A program made the translations under genes and the position numbers. This document shows, one piece after another, positions 19,157-64,000 of a stretch of 64,000 nt of DNA. This stretch comes from Escherichia coli (GTDB taxonomy: Bacteria > Pseudomonadota > Gammaproteobacteria > Enterobacterales > Enterobacteriaceae). A model generated the notes under the pieces. The model did not search any database. It saw only the letters and a list, made by a program, of their open reading frames with translations, and was not told the origin of the DNA. Position 1 is the stretch's first letter. Each line of letters opens with the position of its first letter. The stretch lies in the NCBI RefSeq assembly GCF_050920415.1, contig NZ_CP169309.1; one strand, written 5' to 3'.

Positions 19157-20133
19157 GAGTGGGTTCCGTACTCTTTGTTTAGTGTGATTGTGACAGGCGT
19201 TTCACCGCCGTCTGTAAAGCGTATGCCCCGACAGCTGTATGCATAGCGATAAATTCCAGCAGGCCGGGACGCCGGTCTATTTTGCCCCAGAGTGTCAATG
19301 TTAGACTTGACGGACATTGTGCAGCGATCTGCTGCTATCCTCCGGCAAAAAACAAAATATACCTTCGTTGCGCCAATGTCACCTTTTCCGCAGCGCAAAA
19401 ACTGCGTCAGGGAGGACGAGGTCGCACATTATAACGATTTCGTAGCAATTGGCAGCTAAATACTGGTCTTATCAGGGAAGATAATCAACAGCTAACATGT
19501 AAATAACCTTCAACACCGTGTAATTTGCAACAAGCCGCACAATTCACGAAATTAGCGCTATCGTCGACGGAACTTCTTATAACGTAAGGCTAAAAGCTGT
19601 AAAGCCAGCTCTGCGAAGATGAGGGGCTGCAATGAGATGATCCTCACAGACCACAAATAATGTAGGGATGTCAGGATCGCGGCAAGATAGACGACATTAC
19701 GCAGCGGTTGCTGGTGATTACTCAATTTTCACGGCATCGTCTGGATAAACGTGAATGCTAAAGCACGCAAAATCAACAAACTGACAATGCTCAGCATCAA
19801 ATACGTTCGAGTGGTTAATTTGTAGGCAAATAAAATCAGATTATTCACCCCATGGTACCAGAAATCAGTAACAGGTTAAGCGTAGCGTCGCCCAGGCAAA
19901 GCACCATAAACCTAACAGGCGACGGAGGCGTATCAATAATGGCTGTTTAGTGGAGTAACAGTGCGCATCAATTTATGGTCAGTCGAAATCATGACTTTCC
20001 AGTTTGGATGATGTTGTACAACTTCATGACCAAGATGTTCGACGAAAGCTGTCCGGCTAACCGCTTTTCCCGTTAACCGATTGAATAATGATTTCAAAAT
20101 GAGTTCCCTCTCTTATTAATCCTTGCTAAATGG

Positions 20134-56635: not shown

Positions 56636-57805
56636 TCAGGAAGTTTCTCTTGCTGTCACTACGCCATTTTGCGCAGCCCACAGATTCACATCTTCCTTAC
56701 GAATGGCGGCGGCCATCATGCCGGGGAATAAATCAGGGGTACAGGCAAAGGAGGGAATACCCATGGCGGCGAGTTTTCCTGCCAGTGACCGGTCGTAAAA
56801 CGGTGCGCCTTCGTCGCTTAAGGCCAGCAGGGTAACCACCTGTACGCCGGACTGAATCAACTCACTGGCGCGTTGCAACAGATTGCGTTCCACACCACCT
56901 TCGTAGAGGTCGGAAATCAGCACCAGAATGGTATTACGCGGATCGCGAATCAAAGACTGGCAGTAACCTACCGCGCGGTTGATGTCGGTGCCGCCGCCCA
57001 GCTGCACGCCAAACAGCAGCTCTACCGGATCGTCGAGCTTCTCTGTCATATCAACCACTGCGGTGTCGAAAACCACCAGATGCGTTTTTACCGCCGGGAG
57101 CGATGCCATTACTGCGCCAAAAATACTGGAATAGACCACCGAGGAGGCCATCGACCCACTCTGGTCGATACATAAAATGATCTCCTTTTGCGTGCGTTGA
57201 GACTTGCGCCCGTAGCCGATTAACGTTTCAGGAACAATACTTTTGTACTCTTCCTGCCAGTGGCGCAGGTTGGCGCGAATGGTGCGCTGCCAGTCAATTT
57301 CCGCGTGGCGCGGGCGACGATTACGTACCGCACGATTAAGAGCGCCGCTTACCGCGCTACGCATTGGCTCTTCAAGCTGTTTCATCAATTGCTCGACAAC
57401 TTTACGCACCACAATCCTGGCGGTTTCTTTGGTTTTGGCCGGAATTACGCCATTCAGCGACATCAGCGTGGAGACCAGATGAACATCAGGCTGGACGTTT
57501 GCCAGCATCTCTGGCTCCAGCAACATACTGTGCAAATTAAGACGTTCAAAGGCGTCTTTTTGCATCACCTGAACCACAGAAGAGGGGAAATACTGGCGAA
57601 TATCACCCAGCCAGCGAGCGACTTTGGGTGACGATCCACCCGTGCCGCCGCGTAATCCATGTTTACCGTCTGGCTGATAGAGCGCCGCCAGCGCGGCATC
57701 AATCGCGGACTCTCTGGCATCCAGCGCCACGTTACAGGCATTGTCGGCATCTTCTCCAAGGATCAGACGCCAGCGGCGCAGCCGTTCCATCTCGTTACTC
57801 GACAT
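56636..57805 (-). CDS. von Willebrand factor type A (vWA) domain protein; last gene of five-gene operon
   Basis: 389-aa ORF with MIDAS-like motif D-x-S-x-S (ILCIDQSGSM) and downstream vWA-like hydrophobic strands; overlaps the upstream gene by 11 nt. Confidence 0.8.
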   Translation of the reverse strand: MSSNEMERLRRWRLILGEDADNACNVALDARESAIDAALAALYQPDGKHGLRGGTGGSSPKVARWLGDIRQYFPSSVVQVMQKDAFERLNLHSMLLEPEMLANVQPDVHLVSTLMSLNGVIPAKTKETARIVVRKVVEQLMKQLEEPMRSAVSGALNRAVRNRRPRHAEIDWQRTIRANLRHWQEEYKSIVPETLIGYGRKSQRTQKEIILCIDQSGSMASSVVYSSIFGAVMASLPAVKTHLVVFDTAVVDMTEKLDDPVELLFGVQLGGGTDINRAVGYCQSLIRDPRNTILVLISDLYEGGVERNLLQRASELIQSGVQVVTLLALSDEGAPFYDRSLAGKLAAMGIPSFACTPDLFPGMMAAAIRKEDVNLWAAQNGVVTARETS

Positions 57806-60044
57806 GATTTTCCCTTTCGTGTGGTGGCAAAGCCAGAATGCGGCGCAGTAGCGGCAGCATTAACGCGGCACGCTGTTCATCCCATATACCGCTGGTCTCT
57901 TCTTGCTGCGCGACACGCTCGCCCTGCGCGGCGCGTTCGCCTAACTGGCGGCGTTCCGGGCTGGAAAAACGGCCGAATGTCCGCCGCAGCATCGGCAGGA
58001 TCCGGGTGAAGTGATTGTCGTTCAGGCCGCTTAGCCAGGCATCGATCAACTGCCATAATTCGCTATTGTGCAGTAGCACCATCGCGCTGTCGTTGAGGAA
58101 ACCTTCCGCCCATGCGGCACTTTCCGCCGGGGGATTGGCTGGCGATAGCGCCAGGTTCATCAGCGTGGTGATCCGTTCTGTCGTTAACGTTTGCAGATCA
58201 AACAACAGGCGCGTCGCCGTTCCGCGAAGCAGCGCGTGTGCGGTACTGCCCTCTGCCAGCACCATCAACGCCTGCAACCAGCCCGCCAACAGATCTTCGT
58301 TATCCAGCAACCGCAGCGCGGCGTGAGCGTCGATAACTTTTTCTCTCATACTGGCGGCGCTGTCGTCGTTGAGCGCCGAACAGGCACCGGGTAGGGCGAT
58401 GGCGGCGCGCGGGGCGAGGCTCATCAGTACCTGCATTACCATACCAGAGTCGGTCTGGCGCACGTTGCCGTAGCGGACAATCGCCACCAGCGGTGCCAGG
58501 GCTTCCAGCAACTGTTCGATATTGCCCTGAGTGGCAGCCAGTGATTCCAGTGTATTGGCGATGGGGGCAATCGCGGCCTGTAAATCGGCCAGTAGCACTT
58601 GTTGGATAAGCTTTGCCAGTTCCGGCAGCGTGCTGGCGTATTGCGCCCTCACAATGGCATAGCGGGAGCTGGCCTGCTCAATGCTGTTACCCCAACGGCT
58701 GGCGGTAATGATGTTCATTGCCAGTGCCGGTTCCCAGCGCAGCGACCAGACTTCGTGGAACGTCCCTTTGCTGTTATTTCCTTGTCCAGCCAGACGGCCC
58801 CAGGAAATGTCGAGTAAGGTCAGGCGATGCAGTAAATGGCTACGCGCCAGATCGCCGGGTTTGCGCAGATCAAGATCCAGCACTTTTTCGCTGGCTTCTG
58901 CCTTCAGGCGCAGCGTTTTTTGCTGTTGCGTAATGTCGCGTTGGAGCGGCACGACGGGCGTATCATCCGGTACGCTTCCCAGCGCGTCGCCGACAATTAA
59001 CTTCTGGCGAATCATCTGCATTGGCGCGCTTTCGCCCATACACACTACGGTTTGCAGCGCTTCGCAAAGTTCGTCAAGCCCCGGCTGCGGGTGATGGCGC
59101 ATAATCGCCAGCGTCTGCGCCAGCCGCGCCGCTTCGATAATGTGGGCGCTGGAACAGTCGAGATCGGCTTCGCGAAACAGCCTTGCCGCGCGTGACAGCC
59201 AGCCGATATCGCGGTGAGAAGCGCCCTGATAACGCCACAGATGATCGTACCATTCCGGTGACACCACCCCTGCGCCATAACCGCTGGCGCGGCTTAACGC
59301 CTCGTAGCTCCAGGGCGTCCAGGCTGCCGCGACCTTGCACTTCGGCAAATTTTTCAGCAGTTCGTTATCATTCTTTGCGGGCGGCAGGTTTTCCAGCGCC
59401 GGAACGTGCCACGCACCGCAGACTACCGCGATGCGCGAGAAGCCCTCTTTTTTCGCCTGACGTAGCGTCTTGCGCATATACGCTTCACGCAGTTGATCTC
59501 TGGCTGAGTTTCGGGCTTCGGGAGTTGCCTGGCGTAGGGCAATCATCGCCTCGCGAATCGCCTCGAACAGAGACAAATCATCTTCGCGTTCCTCTACTCT
59601 GTGGCTCCACCAGCTTTCCCCATCGGTGTAACCGGCGGCGCGGCCCAGCCAGTCCAGCGGATCGCCGTCGGGACTGGCTTCAACGGCATCATCGTCATCG
59701 CTCTCTTTTTCGTCATCAAGCGCGAACTGATGACTGATGGGCAAGTCCATAAAGCGCACGGCGATATTTTGCTCAAAACCATAGCGCAGCGCCTGCCATT
59801 CCGGGGAGAACGCCGCAAAGGGGTAAAACGCGGCGTGATGTGAGTCGTCCGGGGCATAAATCAGTAGCGCGACCGGCGGTTGCATCTGTTCATGCTGCAT
59901 GAAAGGCAGGATGGATTCGCCGTCGGGCGGCCCTTCCACCAGCAGGCAGTCGGGCTGTAGCGTCTCCAGCGCCTTTCGCAGGCTGCGCGCGCAGCCAGGG
60001 CCATGGTGACGGATGCCAAACAAATGAACGGTTTGTTCAGTCAT
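57795..60044 (-). CDS. large uncharacterized protein (749 aa), Leu/Ala-rich helical; fourth gene of operon
   Basis: Long uninterrupted ORF with acidic stretch DDEKESDDDDAVEASPDGDP; no motif I can assign by eye. Possibly the DUF5682 family (from memory, unverified). Confidence 0.7.
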   Translation of the reverse strand: MTEQTVHLFGIRHHGPGCARSLRKALETLQPDCLLVEGPPDGESILPFMQHEQMQPPVALLIYAPDDSHHAAFYPFAAFSPEWQALRYGFEQNIAVRFMDLPISHQFALDDEKESDDDDAVEASPDGDPLDWLGRAAGYTDGESWWSHRVEEREDDLSLFEAIREAMIALRQATPEARNSARDQLREAYMRKTLRQAKKEGFSRIAVVCGAWHVPALENLPPAKNDNELLKNLPKCKVAAAWTPWSYEALSRASGYGAGVVSPEWYDHLWRYQGASHRDIGWLSRAARLFREADLDCSSAHIIEAARLAQTLAIMRHHPQPGLDELCEALQTVVCMGESAPMQMIRQKLIVGDALGSVPDDTPVVPLQRDITQQQKTLRLKAEASEKVLDLDLRKPGDLARSHLLHRLTLLDISWGRLAGQGNNSKGTFHEVWSLRWEPALAMNIITASRWGNSIEQASSRYAIVRAQYASTLPELAKLIQQVLLADLQAAIAPIANTLESLAATQGNIEQLLEALAPLVAIVRYGNVRQTDSGMVMQVLMSLAPRAAIALPGACSALNDDSAASMREKVIDAHAALRLLDNEDLLAGWLQALMVLAEGSTAHALLRGTATRLLFDLQTLTTERITTLMNLALSPANPPAESAAWAEGFLNDSAMVLLHNSELWQLIDAWLSGLNDNHFTRILPMLRRTFGRFSSPERRQLGERAAQGERVAQQEETSGIWDEQRAALMLPLLRRILALPPHERENHVE

Positions 60045-60061
60045 AGTGGTTGCCTTGCTGA

Positions 60062-61156
60062 TTACACAATTTCGCGGCAGGCGCGATAGAGATCGTTCCA
60101 GTCGCTGCGCTCTTTGACGATAGTTTCCAGATATTCACGCCATACCACGTCGTCCTGCACGGGATCTTTTACCACCGCGCCGATAAGGCTTGCGGCGATA
60201 TCCCGCGGATGCAGCACGCCGTCGCCAAAATGGCCCGCCAGCGCCATACCGTTGTTGATAACGGAGATCGCCTCCGCGGTGCTGAGAGTACTGGTTGGCG
60301 ACTTAATTTTCGTTTTGCCGTCAACCGTCAGGCCGTTTCGCAGTTCGCGGAAGATTTGCACGACTCGCTGGATCTCTTTAAGCGCTGGCGGTTTGGCAGG
60401 AAGTGCCAGCGCCTGACCCAGTTCGGCGACGCGGCGAGTGACAATGTTAATCTCTTCTTCTTCGCTGGCGGGTACGGGCAAAATGACCGTGTTGAAACGA
60501 CGTTTAAGCGCGGAAGAAAGCTCGTTAACGCCTTTATCCCGGTTGTTGGCGGTGGCGATAACGTTAAAGCCGCGCGTCGCCTGGACCTCTTCATTCAGTT
60601 CGGGGATAGGCAGCGTTTTTTCCGACAGGATCGTGATCAGCGTGTCCTGAACATCAGCAGGAATACGCGTCAGCTCTTCTACGCGTGCAATCTGCCCGCG
60701 CGCCATCGCCCGCATCAACGGACTTTCTACCAGCGCCAAACGTGACGGACCTTTAGAGAGCAACTCCGCGTAGTTCCAGCCATAACGCATTTGTTCTTCA
60801 CCGGTGCCTGCGGTGCCCTGAATAATTAACGTTGAGTCGCCGCTGATGGCAGCCGCCAGATGTTCAGATACCCAGGATTTCGCAGTGCCGGGTACGCCAT
60901 ACAACAGCAGTGCGCGATCGGTTGGCAGCGTGGCAACGGCGGTTTCGATAATCCGCCGGTTGCCGATATATTTCGGCGTGACCTCAAAGCCATTTTCCAG
61001 CTGCCCGCCCAACAGATAGGTGGCGACGGACCATGGAGAAATGGCCCAGTTTTCCGGGCGCGGATGAGTATCGTTTTTTTGCAGCTCATCCAGTTCTTCA
61101 GCAAATTGTTGTTCGGCATGTCGGCGTAAAACGGCGGCAGTAGCGGTAGCATTCAT
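60062..61156 (-). CDS. MoxR-like AAA+ ATPase (AAA_5-type); third gene of operon
   Basis: 364 aa; Walker A LLLYGVPGTAKSW; Walker-B-like IARVEEL followed by IPADVQDTLITILSE (compare MoxR/CbbQ hhhhDE..RAxPxVQxALLExMxE); ATGA overlap with upstream gene. Confidence 0.85.
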   Translation of the reverse strand: MNATATAAVLRRHAEQQFAEELDELQKNDTHPRPENWAISPWSVATYLLGGQLENGFEVTPKYIGNRRIIETAVATLPTDRALLLYGVPGTAKSWVSEHLAAAISGDSTLIIQGTAGTGEEQMRYGWNYAELLSKGPSRLALVESPLMRAMARGQIARVEELTRIPADVQDTLITILSEKTLPIPELNEEVQATRGFNVIATANNRDKGVNELSSALKRRFNTVILPVPASEEEEINIVTRRVAELGQALALPAKPPALKEIQRVVQIFRELRNGLTVDGKTKIKSPTSTLSTAEAISVINNGMALAGHFGDGVLHPRDIAASLIGAVVKDPVQDDVVWREYLETIVKERSDWNDLYRACREIV

Positions 61157-62757
61157 AAAGTGGTTTCTCCGACAAAAAGCGAATTAAGTTGAATTCGGTT
61201 CGCCAGCGCGGCGCTCAGGGCAGTAAAGGCTGCCTCGCAATAAGGCGTTTGTTGTGCGTCGTGCGGCCACTTGTCAATGACATCATTGAGGACTTCGGGG
61301 GCCAGCAGGCAGGCGAAATCACTCATCACATGGCGCAGGGCGTAGTCAAAGCGCGCGGAATCATATTTCACCCAACGGTGTAGCTCCGTGACCATTTGCT
61401 GGCTCAGGCGCAGGCTAAAGAGCGACGCATCCAGCGGTAACAGGCTGATGTAGCGATGTAAATGTTCGCCGCCCACCACTGAGAACAATGACCGTAACAT
61501 CGGCTCGTGTTCTTCTACAGGCAGACATTGCAAAAGCTCAAAGGCGTTAATCTTCACGCCTGCAGGATGATGAATGCTCATTCCGACGGGCAGCATGGCG
61601 AGAAACGCCTGCGCCCACTGCGGATTTTTTTCGCGCAGTACGGCGTGATACCAGGCGCGCAGTAGCGCCTTCTGCCAGTCGGTTTTCCCGGCCCAGCGCA
61701 GCAGTTCAACGGGGGTAGCCTGCAGTTGCGTTTGCCACCAGTCGAGCGGAACCGCTGCAACTATCTGATACAGCCACCATGCGCGCTGGCCCAACTTTTC
61801 GCCTTTGGGCTTAGTTTCTTCCAGCGCATCGGCCTTCCACTCTGGTAAGAACGCCTCCGGGGCATCAAGGGCGACGTGCAGCATTTTTTCTTTGCCGGAT
61901 AAGCCTTTTAGCCTTTCAAGTAAGGTCTCAGGAGCGGGGGATGAACTGAGCAACGGCGCTAACCGAGACTTCATGCGCGAGATCCAGGCGCTTTCCGGCA
62001 GACAACACAGTAACCGTGCCGCAGTTTGCCGCACCTCTTTGCTGCGATCGGATAATGTCTGTTCCAGAAAGGCTTCGTCGTGTTGGGAGATCTCCACTTC
62101 CAGCACAGCCAGCAGCTGTGCGCGTTCGCGGGCATCCAGCGAACTCATCTCCTGCGCCAGCCGATCGCGACCCTGTTCCGGGGCGCGAATGCGCATTTGC
62201 GTCAGATATTGCAGACGCTGTTCGGACGTGCCGTGCAGCCACATTTCTTCATCCAGCGGAGCGTCAACGGAGGCAAGAAAATAGCGCCAGTCGGCGTTAA
62301 TTTGCGCCAGCCAGCGCCCGCGAGCGCCGAGGACATTGGGCAGAATGCCGCGTATTGATGGATTTTGTACGCCGTAATTCAGCAGTGCCGGTAACAGCAG
62401 GGGCGGAGAAAGAAGCTGACGCTGGACCAGGTGATCAAGCGCTGACCACAGTAAACGCGGCGGCCCTTCTGCCAGCAACAGATGCAGCAGTCCCGCAAAA
62501 GCCGGGTTGTTTATTGGCTCGGCATTTTCTTTATCGATTTCCGGCAGCGGTGCGGGGTCAATCGCCTGCGGCACCCAGCCAGCCAGATGGCAGAGCGCCA
62601 GAACGCCCGCCGAGCGCAGTAGCTGTTGCTCTGCGGATGTGTTATTCGCCAGTTCAGACAGTAACAGCCCAATCTCACTTTGCGACGCCGACGGTGTGAA
62701 CGCTTTTTTGTCTGTGCCGAGTAGCGCTGTGCGGGTTAAATTTTGCCATTCGTTCAT
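61153..62757 (-). CDS. uncharacterized protein (~534 aa), Leu/Ala/Trp-rich helical; second gene of operon
   Basis: ORF 61153..62778 in the track; start chosen at the Met whose ATG forms an ATGA overlap with the SWIM gene stop (62754..62757). Possibly the DUF5691 family (from memory, unverified). Confidence 0.7.
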   Translation of the reverse strand: MNEWQNLTRTALLGTDKKAFTPSASQSEIGLLLSELANNTSAEQQLLRSAGVLALCHLAGWVPQAIDPAPLPEIDKENAEPINNPAFAGLLHLLLAEGPPRLLWSALDHLVQRQLLSPPLLLPALLNYGVQNPSIRGILPNVLGARGRWLAQINADWRYFLASVDAPLDEEMWLHGTSEQRLQYLTQMRIRAPEQGRDRLAQEMSSLDARERAQLLAVLEVEISQHDEAFLEQTLSDRSKEVRQTAARLLCCLPESAWISRMKSRLAPLLSSSPAPETLLERLKGLSGKEKMLHVALDAPEAFLPEWKADALEETKPKGEKLGQRAWWLYQIVAAVPLDWWQTQLQATPVELLRWAGKTDWQKALLRAWYHAVLREKNPQWAQAFLAMLPVGMSIHHPAGVKINAFELLQCLPVEEHEPMLRSLFSVVGGEHLHRYISLLPLDASLFSLRLSQQMVTELHRWVKYDSARFDYALRHVMSDFACLLAPEVLNDVIDKWPHDAQQTPYCEAAFTALSAALANRIQLNSLFVGETTL

Positions 62758-64000
62758 TGTGCGCCTCCGGTTGCCCAAATCACGCTACCGGCAAGCCAGG
62801 CGCTACAGGGCGTCAGCTGCTGACCATCCCATTCCCCCATTAGCATAAACGGCGCGCCGCCGCTGGCCGCCAGTAACCGCCAACCCTCGTCCGACGACAG
62901 GTGCGTCGGTAAGTGCTGGCCCTGTGTCGAGACGAATCGCCAGCCGCTCTCGTGCGGGTAAATCAATATTTCGCTTACTCGCAGCGGCAGAGGCCATTGC
63001 CAGGGATTCGCGCTAAGCCGCTGCGCCATGTCATGCAGCGCGTCCGGGAGGGGTAATTCTGCAAGCGGGAATCTTTCACCGCGGGTAAACGGCTCCACAA
63101 TCCGCGCCCGTAGCGGTGATGCGCCAGGGAAAAAGGCAAGCGCGCCCTGGCAGACTTGCCCGGTGATAAAGTGCTGGGGAAAGTTTTTACCACCGTGTGA
63201 ATAGTCCAGCAGTAGCGCGGTGCGGTGGCTCTTTTCTCCGTACAGCCAGACCCGGCGTCGCCACAGATTATTCTCTTCTTGCGCGCTTTGGCCTAAGACC
63301 TGCCAGTTATCAAGGCAGGTTAGTCCGTCAGCGATGTCATGTTTATCCGGGGTTATTCCCAATGCTGCATGGAGATCGCTAAGTTGTGCCGGGGATAACA
63401 TTTGTTGCTGGCGCCAGGCGTCAATAATCAGCTGTAGCTGCCCCAGTTCTTTGCACAGGCTCGATGGCCATACCTCGGCGGTAGTAAAAAGAGTGGTCAG
63501 ATTGTTCAGGCGAGCGGCAATTCCCGGTAGTTGAGCGTCGACCATGCGGGCGGCGATCCCGGCAAAAGGCAACTGTTGTGCAGAGATCTGCGCCAGACCG
63601 TGGCGGATCAGGTCGTGCATCCACTGTTCGAGGAAATCCAGCCCCGCCGTCATTTTTTGGTTGCGTGCCGCTTCCCGTTTGGCGGCAGCCTGCGGGTCGG
63701 CAGCTTTTGCCTCAGCCTGCTCTTTCTTTTCTTCTTTGCGAACCGCTCGCTGCTGGCGCGAGGTTAGCCACTCGCTTACCCATTCCGGCGGCTCGCCAGC
63801 GGTGAAACTTGCGGTGTGTTGCACCTGGAGCAAAAGCAACGCAAGGCTATGTTTACAGGGGAATTTACGGCTGGGGCAGGAACATTTACAGGCCAGATCC
63901 TGCCTGTCGACCCGTACCTGATAAGGGCGGGAGCCGCTGCCTTTACATTCTCCCCAGAACGCGGTCTCGCTATATCCCAGCGTCGGCCATTTTGCGGGGG
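62754..64000 (-). CDS. SWIM zinc-finger domain protein, 5'-truncated by the window edge; first visible gene of operon
   Basis: Hand translation upstream of the track ORF gives ...GECKGSGSRPYQVRVDRQDLACKCSCPSRKFPCKHSLALLLLQVQ..., a CxC-x(n)-CxH SWIM signature; no stop codon before position 64000, and the track ORF start is a TTG. Confidence 0.8.
   Translation of the reverse strand, partial: PAKWPTLGYSETAFWGECKGSGSRPYQVRVDRQDLACKCSCPSRKFPCKHSLALLLLQVQHTASFTAGEPPEWVSEWLTSRQQRAVRKEEKKEQAEAKAADPQAAAKREAARNQKMTAGLDFLEQWMHDLIRHGLAQISAQQLPFAGIAARMVDAQLPGIAARLNNLTTLFTTAEVWPSSLCKELGQLQLIIDAWRQQQMLSPAQLSDLHAALGITPDKHDIADGLTCLDNWQVLGQSAQEENNLWRRRVWLYGEKSHRTALLLDYSHGGKNFPQHFITGQVCQGALAFFPGASPLRARIVEPFTRGERFPLAELPLPDALHDMAQRLSANPWQWPLPLRVSEILIYPHESGWRFVSTQGQHLPTHLSSDEGWRLLAASGGAPFMLMGEWDGQQLTPCSAWLAGSVIWATGGAQ

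Follow-up and report, generated by a model that had tools for sequence, protein, structure and literature searches.

The 64,000-nucleotide stretch of the Escherichia coli chromosome analyzed here (the window; RefSeq assembly GCF_050920415.1, contig NZ_CP169309.1) carries a gene at positions 60062–61156 whose product is a full-length AAA_5/MoxR-class AAA+ ATPase of the YehL subfamily. In this ATPase a pair of glutamates, E160-E161, occupies the position of the canonical Asp-Glu of the Walker B motif. Taken as a whole, the interpretation that we regard as probable is that of a YehL paralog, acquired horizontally, in which Glu-Glu is an ancient and fixed replacement of Asp-Glu. The gene and the motif are located as follows:

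60062–61156, reverse strand: YehL-subfamily MoxR AAA+ ATPase (ATG start, 364 amino acids; RefSeq coding sequence WP_000994483.1, 'ATP-binding protein')
60674–60691, reverse strand: Walker B strand I156-A-R158-V-E160-E161, with Glu-Glu for Asp-Glu, placed by alignments and by model strand 156–160

A preliminary description of the gene had aligned the segment GQIARVEELTRIPADVQDTLITILSE (residues 154–179) by eye and put a glutamate at the Mg-coordinating Asp of Walker B. HMMER, BLASTP and hhalign alignments, together with a structural model, bear this placement out. E160 is encoded by GAA (window positions 60677–60679) and E161 by GAG (60674–60676). Aligned with HMMER against four Midasin AAA modules, the two glutamates fall on the Asp-Glu of 'lllDEvnla', 'ivlDElnlap', 'fllDEisla' and 'vllDEmnla', and with BLASTP they fall on the Asp-Glu of 'VLLIDEIDRA' in two CoxD-type MoxR ATPases (E=1e-14 and 9e-17). 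Using hhalign, 'IARVEELTR' stands opposite 'VLLIDEIDR' of a CoxD-type MoxR protein (probability 99.2%, E=1.3e-19) and opposite 'IVFLDEIWK' of E. coli RavA. A PDB search with residues 59–179 alone returned P-loop matches to classical AAA proteins only and no NorQ alignment; CoxD-type proteins from plasmids stood in for NorQ in the residue-level comparison.

The AlphaFold model of the ATPase was built on a 30-sequence family alignment (A1) and is confident, with a mean predicted local distance difference test (pLDDT) score of 92.8 and a predicted template modeling (pTM) score of 0.89. Its β-strand 156–160 stops exactly at E160, as expected of a Walker B strand. A strand–P-loop–helix unit (82–105) precedes this strand, and the sensor-1 strand (198–204) follows it. 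The preliminary description had named a canonical hhhhDE (h, hydrophobic) elsewhere in the protein as the observation that would speak against its alignment; a search of all 364 residues found none, the sole Asp-Glu pair being D23-E24. That pair was considered as a Walker B motif and rejected, as it is part of an N-terminal helix that precedes Walker A. E160-E161 thus occupy the canonical Walker B Asp-Glu position, and chance is not at issue since the pair is a deterministic feature of the sequence.

Where the preliminary description went astray was in treating Glu-Glu as peculiar to a single gene. All 120 of the nearest database clusters, which are 78–100% identical to the ATPase and come from Enterobacteriaceae, Pseudomonas, Bilophila, Roseateles, Competibacteraceae and Verrucomicrobium, have Glu-Glu at this site, and so does YehL of E. 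coli K-12 ('VRFEEITR'). A wider set was formed by the best 150 representatives of clusters at 50% identity: Glu-Glu is present in 115 of them, the alignment has a gap at the site in 21, and 14 read otherwise. Ten of these 14 are fragments or chimeras without a credible alignment, so that Glu-Glu is found in 115 of 119 credibly aligned representatives. Two of the four exceptions are fragments, P0193 (Ala-Glu) and P0195 (Glu-Asp). The third, P0188 ('IVRIDELSR'), is the only Asp-Glu representative found, and its source is a single 1.3-kb metagenomic contig. The last, P0136 ('IARFEALGR'), lacks E161 as well as the sensor-1 Asn and the Arg pair, a joint loss that makes it look truly degenerate. At its locus (L009 2200–6610, contig ERR4592244_2201593) the P0136 gene adjoins a gene for a 1097-residue DUF5682 protein, with no separate VWA gene, and lies beside a gene for a TLC-type ATP/ADP translocase; this locus may represent an inactivated form, carried by an intracellular bacterium.

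Within A1, where identity to the ATPase goes down to 38%, all sequences have R158, E160 and R164, and 29 of the 30 have E161. Judged from these alignments, h-h-R-h-E-E-h-T-R is a signature fixed throughout the YehL subfamily, K-12 YehL included. Because the CoxD-type proteins, RavA, NorQ and Midasin AAA2–5 all have Asp-Glu, Glu appears to be the derived state, fixed on the YehL branch; the change would have arisen after the YehL lineage split from the CoxD-like MoxR ATPases, which keep Asp-Glu. An Asp codon is one third-position change away, and the near-total fixation of Glu in spite of this argues for selection for Glu itself and not just for an acidic residue.

The remaining residues of the nucleotide site could be assigned from the same alignments and model:

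60875–60898, reverse strand: Walker A/P-loop, G87-V-P-G-T-A-K93-S94, after strand 82–87 and before helix 93–105 of the model
60665–60667, reverse strand: R164, the Arg of 'EELTR', which matches the Arg of CoxD 'DEIDRA' (BLASTP, hhalign) and is invariant in A1
60545–60547, reverse strand: sensor-1 Asn N204, at the end of strand 198–204 ('NVIATAN'), corresponding to the Asn of Midasin 'fatmN' and CoxD 'iitsN'
60497–60502, reverse strand: Arg-finger region R219-R220 ('ALKRRF'), aligned to Midasin 'alrnRF' and CoxD 'alkRRc'

The P-loop aligns to the GPPGTGKT P-loops of AAA proteins. In A1 the lysine, K93, is invariant and position 94 is Ser or Thr, while in most members of the YehL-type family the second P-loop Gly is replaced by Ala (GVPGTAKS). 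N204, R219 and R220 are each kept in 29 of the 30 sequences. In the lid motif 'LSTAEAIS' (residues 291–298), E295 (codon at window positions 60272–60274) occupies a position that is Glu, Asp or Gln throughout the YehL-type family. A weak hhalign alignment sets E295 opposite an Arg of one CoxD-type MoxR protein ('DWARAIA'), possibly the sensor-2 Arg, in which case the nucleotide site of the family would have a second deviation; in the other CoxD-type protein this Arg is absent.

Several lines of evidence place the protein in the MoxR family. The preliminary description had called it MoxR-like and proposed a profile alignment, and Pfam AAA_5 indeed matches residues 83–221 over profile positions 2–139 of 139 (E=1.3e-38; 132.6 bits against a cut-off of 22). 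In the model, the extra strands of a helix-2 insert (125–127 and 142–144) lie between Walker A and Walker B, and a pre-sensor-1 hairpin (181–184/189–192) lies ahead of the sensor-1 strand. The top solved-structure matches returned by Foldseek are NorQ and CbbQ (E ~1e-12, TM-score ~0.8 normalized on the target), so by fold the protein is a MoxR ATPase. By motif it departs from the family, as its Walker B reads I-A-R-V-E-E, with an Arg at −2, and not hhhhDE. This deviation does not bar it from the MoxR family as now drawn, because YehL, which is a named subfamily of the MoxR AAA+ ATPases (PMC3893208), shares it. A partner gene with a VWA domain is also characteristic of these systems, and a VWA_CoxE gene lies in the same operon, two genes downstream; a VWA gene is near the ATPase gene in every neighborhood examined except the degenerate P0136 locus. 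Within the family, the nearest named relative is YehL, which aligns over the full length, and genes resembling yehM (DUF5682) and yehP (VWA_CoxE) stand beside the ATPase gene. An NCBIfam scan returned only sub-threshold MadB and GvpN matches for the ATPase and no matches for the partner proteins.

Five closely spaced genes on the same strand form a cassette that encodes, in order, SWIM, DUF5691, ATPase, DUF5682 and CoxE-type VWA proteins, the ATPase gene being the third. The four partners are:

62754–64000, reverse strand: SWIM zinc-finger protein, the first gene of the cassette, cut by the end of the window (RefSeq)
61153–62757, reverse strand: DUF5691 protein, 534 amino acids by the RefSeq start (Pfam DUF5691, E=4.1e-121)
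57795–60044, reverse strand: DUF5682 protein (YehM-like), 749 amino acids, with an N-terminal TraB/ChaN/EreA-like domain and a C-terminal helical repeat
56636–57805, reverse strand: CoxE-type VWA protein (YehP-like), 389 amino acids (Pfam VWA_CoxE, E=2.7e-52), 37% identical to K-12 YehP

The full SWIM coding sequence extends to about position 64076 and encodes 440 amino acids (Pfam SWIM, E=6e-07 on the full protein). The stop codon of the DUF5691 gene overlaps the start codon of the ATPase gene (ATGA), and the first 11 nt of the VWA gene are shared with the end of the DUF5682 gene. The VWA protein carries a MIDAS-like D-x-S-x-S motif ('DQSGS'). In the model of the DUF5682 protein (pLDDT 84), the N-terminal ~250 residues resemble the TraB/ChaN/erythromycin-esterase superfamily and the remainder is a helical repeat; R12-H13-H14, E37, E82 and G210-x-x-H213 are invariant. 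Sequence-level tests of the link between DUF5682 and TraB gave no significant match. Searching PADLOC-DB 2.0 with the five proteins returned no significant defense-system match; the ATPase had an insignificant match to IetA (E=0.0017 over 28 residues, the size of a P-loop) and the other four had nothing. No paper on DUF5682 or DUF5691 was found in a literature search, and the papers that name YehL merely list it as a MoxR subfamily.

At 57.7%, the G+C content of the cassette (56636–64000) exceeds that of the remaining window sequence (51.0%). The cassette occupies the yhcG–gltD interval, which in K-12 holds gltF and the yhcADEF fimbrial genes, and it is present in 33 of 5426 complete E. coli genomes, SMS-3-5 among them, always chromosomal and in single copy. 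The G+C contrast, the location between gltD and yhcG and the rarity together identify a horizontally acquired island, and this island is paralogous to the core yehLMPQ operon. The five-gene order is matched in Verrucomicrobium spinosum, and a yeh-like order (ATPase, DUF5682, VWA) is seen in an uncultured bacterium and in K-12; the triad of ATPase, DUF5682 and VWA_CoxE occurs together in E. coli yehLMP, V. spinosum and the uncultured bacterium. Streptomyces, Rhizobium, Bacillus, Hymenobacter and Methylosinus also have relatives, encoded on large plasmids or secondary replicons. Between E. coli and V. spinosum (ATPase gene at L005 8001–9077), identity is 80% for the ATPase, 68% for the VWA protein, 48% for the DUF5682 protein, 42% for the SWIM protein and 31% for the DUF5691 protein, making the ATPase gene by far the most constrained of the cassette. 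The ATPase is also ~80–83% identical to its Pseudomonas, Bilophila and Roseateles homologs, an unusual degree of conservation for an uncharacterized accessory gene.

K-12 YehL (b2119), after which the YehL subfamily is named as its founder, is 41% identical to the ATPase over 350 of its 364 residues (E=7e-78). The K-12 operon yehL-yehM-yehP-yehQ encodes the same kinds of partner, DUF5682 (YehM), VWA_CoxE (YehP) and SWIM (YehQ) proteins, but the two ATPases are paralogs and not orthologs. The SWIM gene is downstream in the yeh operon and upstream in the cassette, and the two SWIM proteins have no significant similarity outside the zinc finger. A DUF5691 gene is present in the cassette, while none was detected in the yeh operon. 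yehL belongs to the core genome, being found in 5218 of the 5426 complete E. coli genomes, in contrast to the rare cassette ATPase; across phyla, however, the lineage of the cassette ATPase is far more conserved than that of YehL.

The closest relatives found with a canonical motif are the CoxD-type MoxR ATPases, at 31% identity over ~190–215 residues. Their Walker B, 'VLLIDEIDRA', shares the '[DE]-E-h-x-R' context with the ATPase but has Asp-Glu, and a hydrophobic residue where the ATPase has R158. The two CoxD-type genes compared lie on plasmids, in carbon-monoxide dehydrogenase clusters with XdhC/CoxF-like genes, and these systems lack DUF5682, DUF5691 and SWIM partners. A likeness to the CoxD-CoxE pair is nonetheless apparent in the VWA partner of the cassette, which matches Pfam VWA_CoxE. 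In the region of the helix-2 insert, 'RYGWN-Y' (window positions 60776–60790, residues 123–127) contains a Y-x-W-N-Y motif that is common to the YehL family (Y125 invariant; W127 and N128 at least 90%) and the CoxD-type proteins ('YEWNY'). The shared motif supports a sister relationship between CoxD and YehL and may mark a pore or VWA-contact element.

NorQ-NorD and CbbQ-CbbO provide the best structural matches, yet NorQ and CbbQ are only 16–20% identical to the ATPase in sequence. Like the ATPase, both have a single AAA+ module, with a VWA gene adjacent; in solved structures they are hexamers. They are ~100 residues shorter, the ATPase having an N-terminal extension (residues 1–60) and a larger lid, and their clients, cNOR and Rubisco, are known. 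NorQ has the canonical Asp-Glu, in which the Asp binds Mg2+ and the following Glu, E109, is catalytic (PMC9976466). RavA-ViaA, also in E. coli, is another pair of a MoxR ATPase and a VWA partner, but RavA is only weakly similar to the ATPase (hhalign probability 73%), has a canonical 'FLDEIWK', and differs in its C-terminal domains and partners. The best-scoring PDB sequence match of the ATPase is Midasin/Rea1 (E=1e-16). Its AAA1, one module of a six-module eukaryotic giant, likewise starts the Walker B acidic pair with Glu ('VLIEDIDKAP' opposite 'ARVEELTRIP'), although it reads Glu-Asp and not Glu-Glu.

How would such a site work? We infer a working, probably hexameric ATPase in which E161 would be the catalytic base and Glu160 would supply the carboxylate that holds Mg2+ and its water shell, a carboxylate that normally comes from Asp. 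By analogy with NorQ-NorD (PMC9976466), the ring would engage its CoxE-type VWA partner as a MoxR-VWA pair and remodel a client. The DUF5682 protein is the obvious candidate because it is always encoded between the ATPase and VWA genes, and it would be the most plausible client or co-factor. Conservation of K93, S/T94, E161, N204 and R219/R220, in what is the most constrained gene of the cassette, argues for a working enzyme and not for a decayed site, and the pattern of conserved residues makes it most likely that the ATPase is hydrolytically competent with Mg held by Glu160.

Three points weigh against this interpretation. A literature search returned no biochemical data for any member of the YehL family. 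The active site could be more deviant than Walker B alone indicates if E295, as the weak alignment to one CoxD-type protein may suggest, stands in place of the sensor-2 Arg. Finally, the sole other Glu that we found at this position, in yeast Midasin AAA1 ('IEDID'), belongs to a module described as lacking a conserved Walker B, with a site that is dispensable in S. pombe (PMC5116814, PMC6920918). AAA1 would seem to be a cautionary precedent for the ATPase and not a close comparison.

A possible but less likely account, and one that agrees on the identity of the protein and differs on kinetics only, is that Glu160, perhaps with R158, retunes the site, so that hydrolysis is slow or triggered and the ATPase acts as a nucleotide-state switch and not as a cycling motor. 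Glu is specifically selected at position 160 family-wide, with Asp one nucleotide away. R158, which is invariant, takes the place of a residue that is hydrophobic in canonical MoxR proteins (CoxD 'VLLIDE', RavA 'IVFLDE') and, being two residues upstream, would by strand geometry share a strand face with E160. The possible acidic residue at the sensor-2 position would point the same way. However, neither the catalytic Glu nor sensor 1 nor the Arg finger is altered, the change from Asp to Glu retains the carboxylate, P0188 combines Asp-Glu with R158, and the sequence support for a switch is limited to the substitution itself. Slowness also needs no special motif, because canonical Asp-Glu MoxR ATPases are already slow; the kcat of NorQ is ~25 per min per hexamer (PMC9976466).

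A further proposal, which we consider improbable, is that the R-x-E-E Walker B, possibly together with the acidic sensor-2 residue, forms a distinct nucleotide site that gates the TraB/Tiki-like hydrolase domain of DUF5682, making the five genes an uncharacterized ATP-gated regulatory or conflict module. Were this so, the site might, for example, prefer another metal or stay inactive until engagement of the VWA partner or a client.

That the Glu-Glu site is degenerate and the protein a catalytically dead scaffold, or pseudo-ATPase, is very unlikely. The parallel with Midasin AAA1, which has Glu at the same position and is said to lack a functional Walker B, is what favors it, but every nucleotide-site residue of the ATPase is under strong purifying selection, with 80% identity retained between E. 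coli and Verrucomicrobium, and true loss looks like P0136, where several motifs are gone at once. Nothing was found in favor of the remaining alternative, that the by-eye alignment was mistaken and missed a canonical Walker B in another part of the protein, or that the Glu stems from a sequencing error or from a mutation confined to this strain, and it is refuted: four independent alignments and the predicted strand boundary concur on E160-E161, the sole Asp-Glu pair is N-terminal to Walker A, 235 of 239 homologous sequences credibly aligned at the site have Glu-Glu, and the gene is 96.8–100% identical over the 33 E. coli genomes that carry it.

Elsewhere, the window begins within an rRNA operon, positions 1–1154 containing the end of a 23S gene followed by a 5S gene, a tRNA-Thr gene and a second 5S gene. 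At 19547–19937 (reverse strand), between accB and acuI, RefSeq annotates a truncated pseudogene fragment of a sulfoxide reductase heme-binding subunit (YedZ/MsrQ-like). The window is 100% identical to strain MFDS1022581 (NZ_CP169399.1).

The ATPase is a rare new member of a known but uncharacterized subfamily. A literature search for glutamate replacing the Asp of Walker B returned nothing relevant, and Glu-Glu by itself reveals neither a new mechanism nor the function of the cassette. What it does is turn the oddity of one gene into a family rule: the YehL-type MoxR ATPases, a branch that is widespread, completely uncharacterized and found in almost all E. coli, carry Glu-Glu and an upstream Arg where the textbook motif is hhhhDE. 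The h-h-R-h-E-E-h-T-R signature provides a clean diagnostic motif for the subfamily, and it cautions against annotating or dismissing YehL-type proteins by motif rules that demand Asp.

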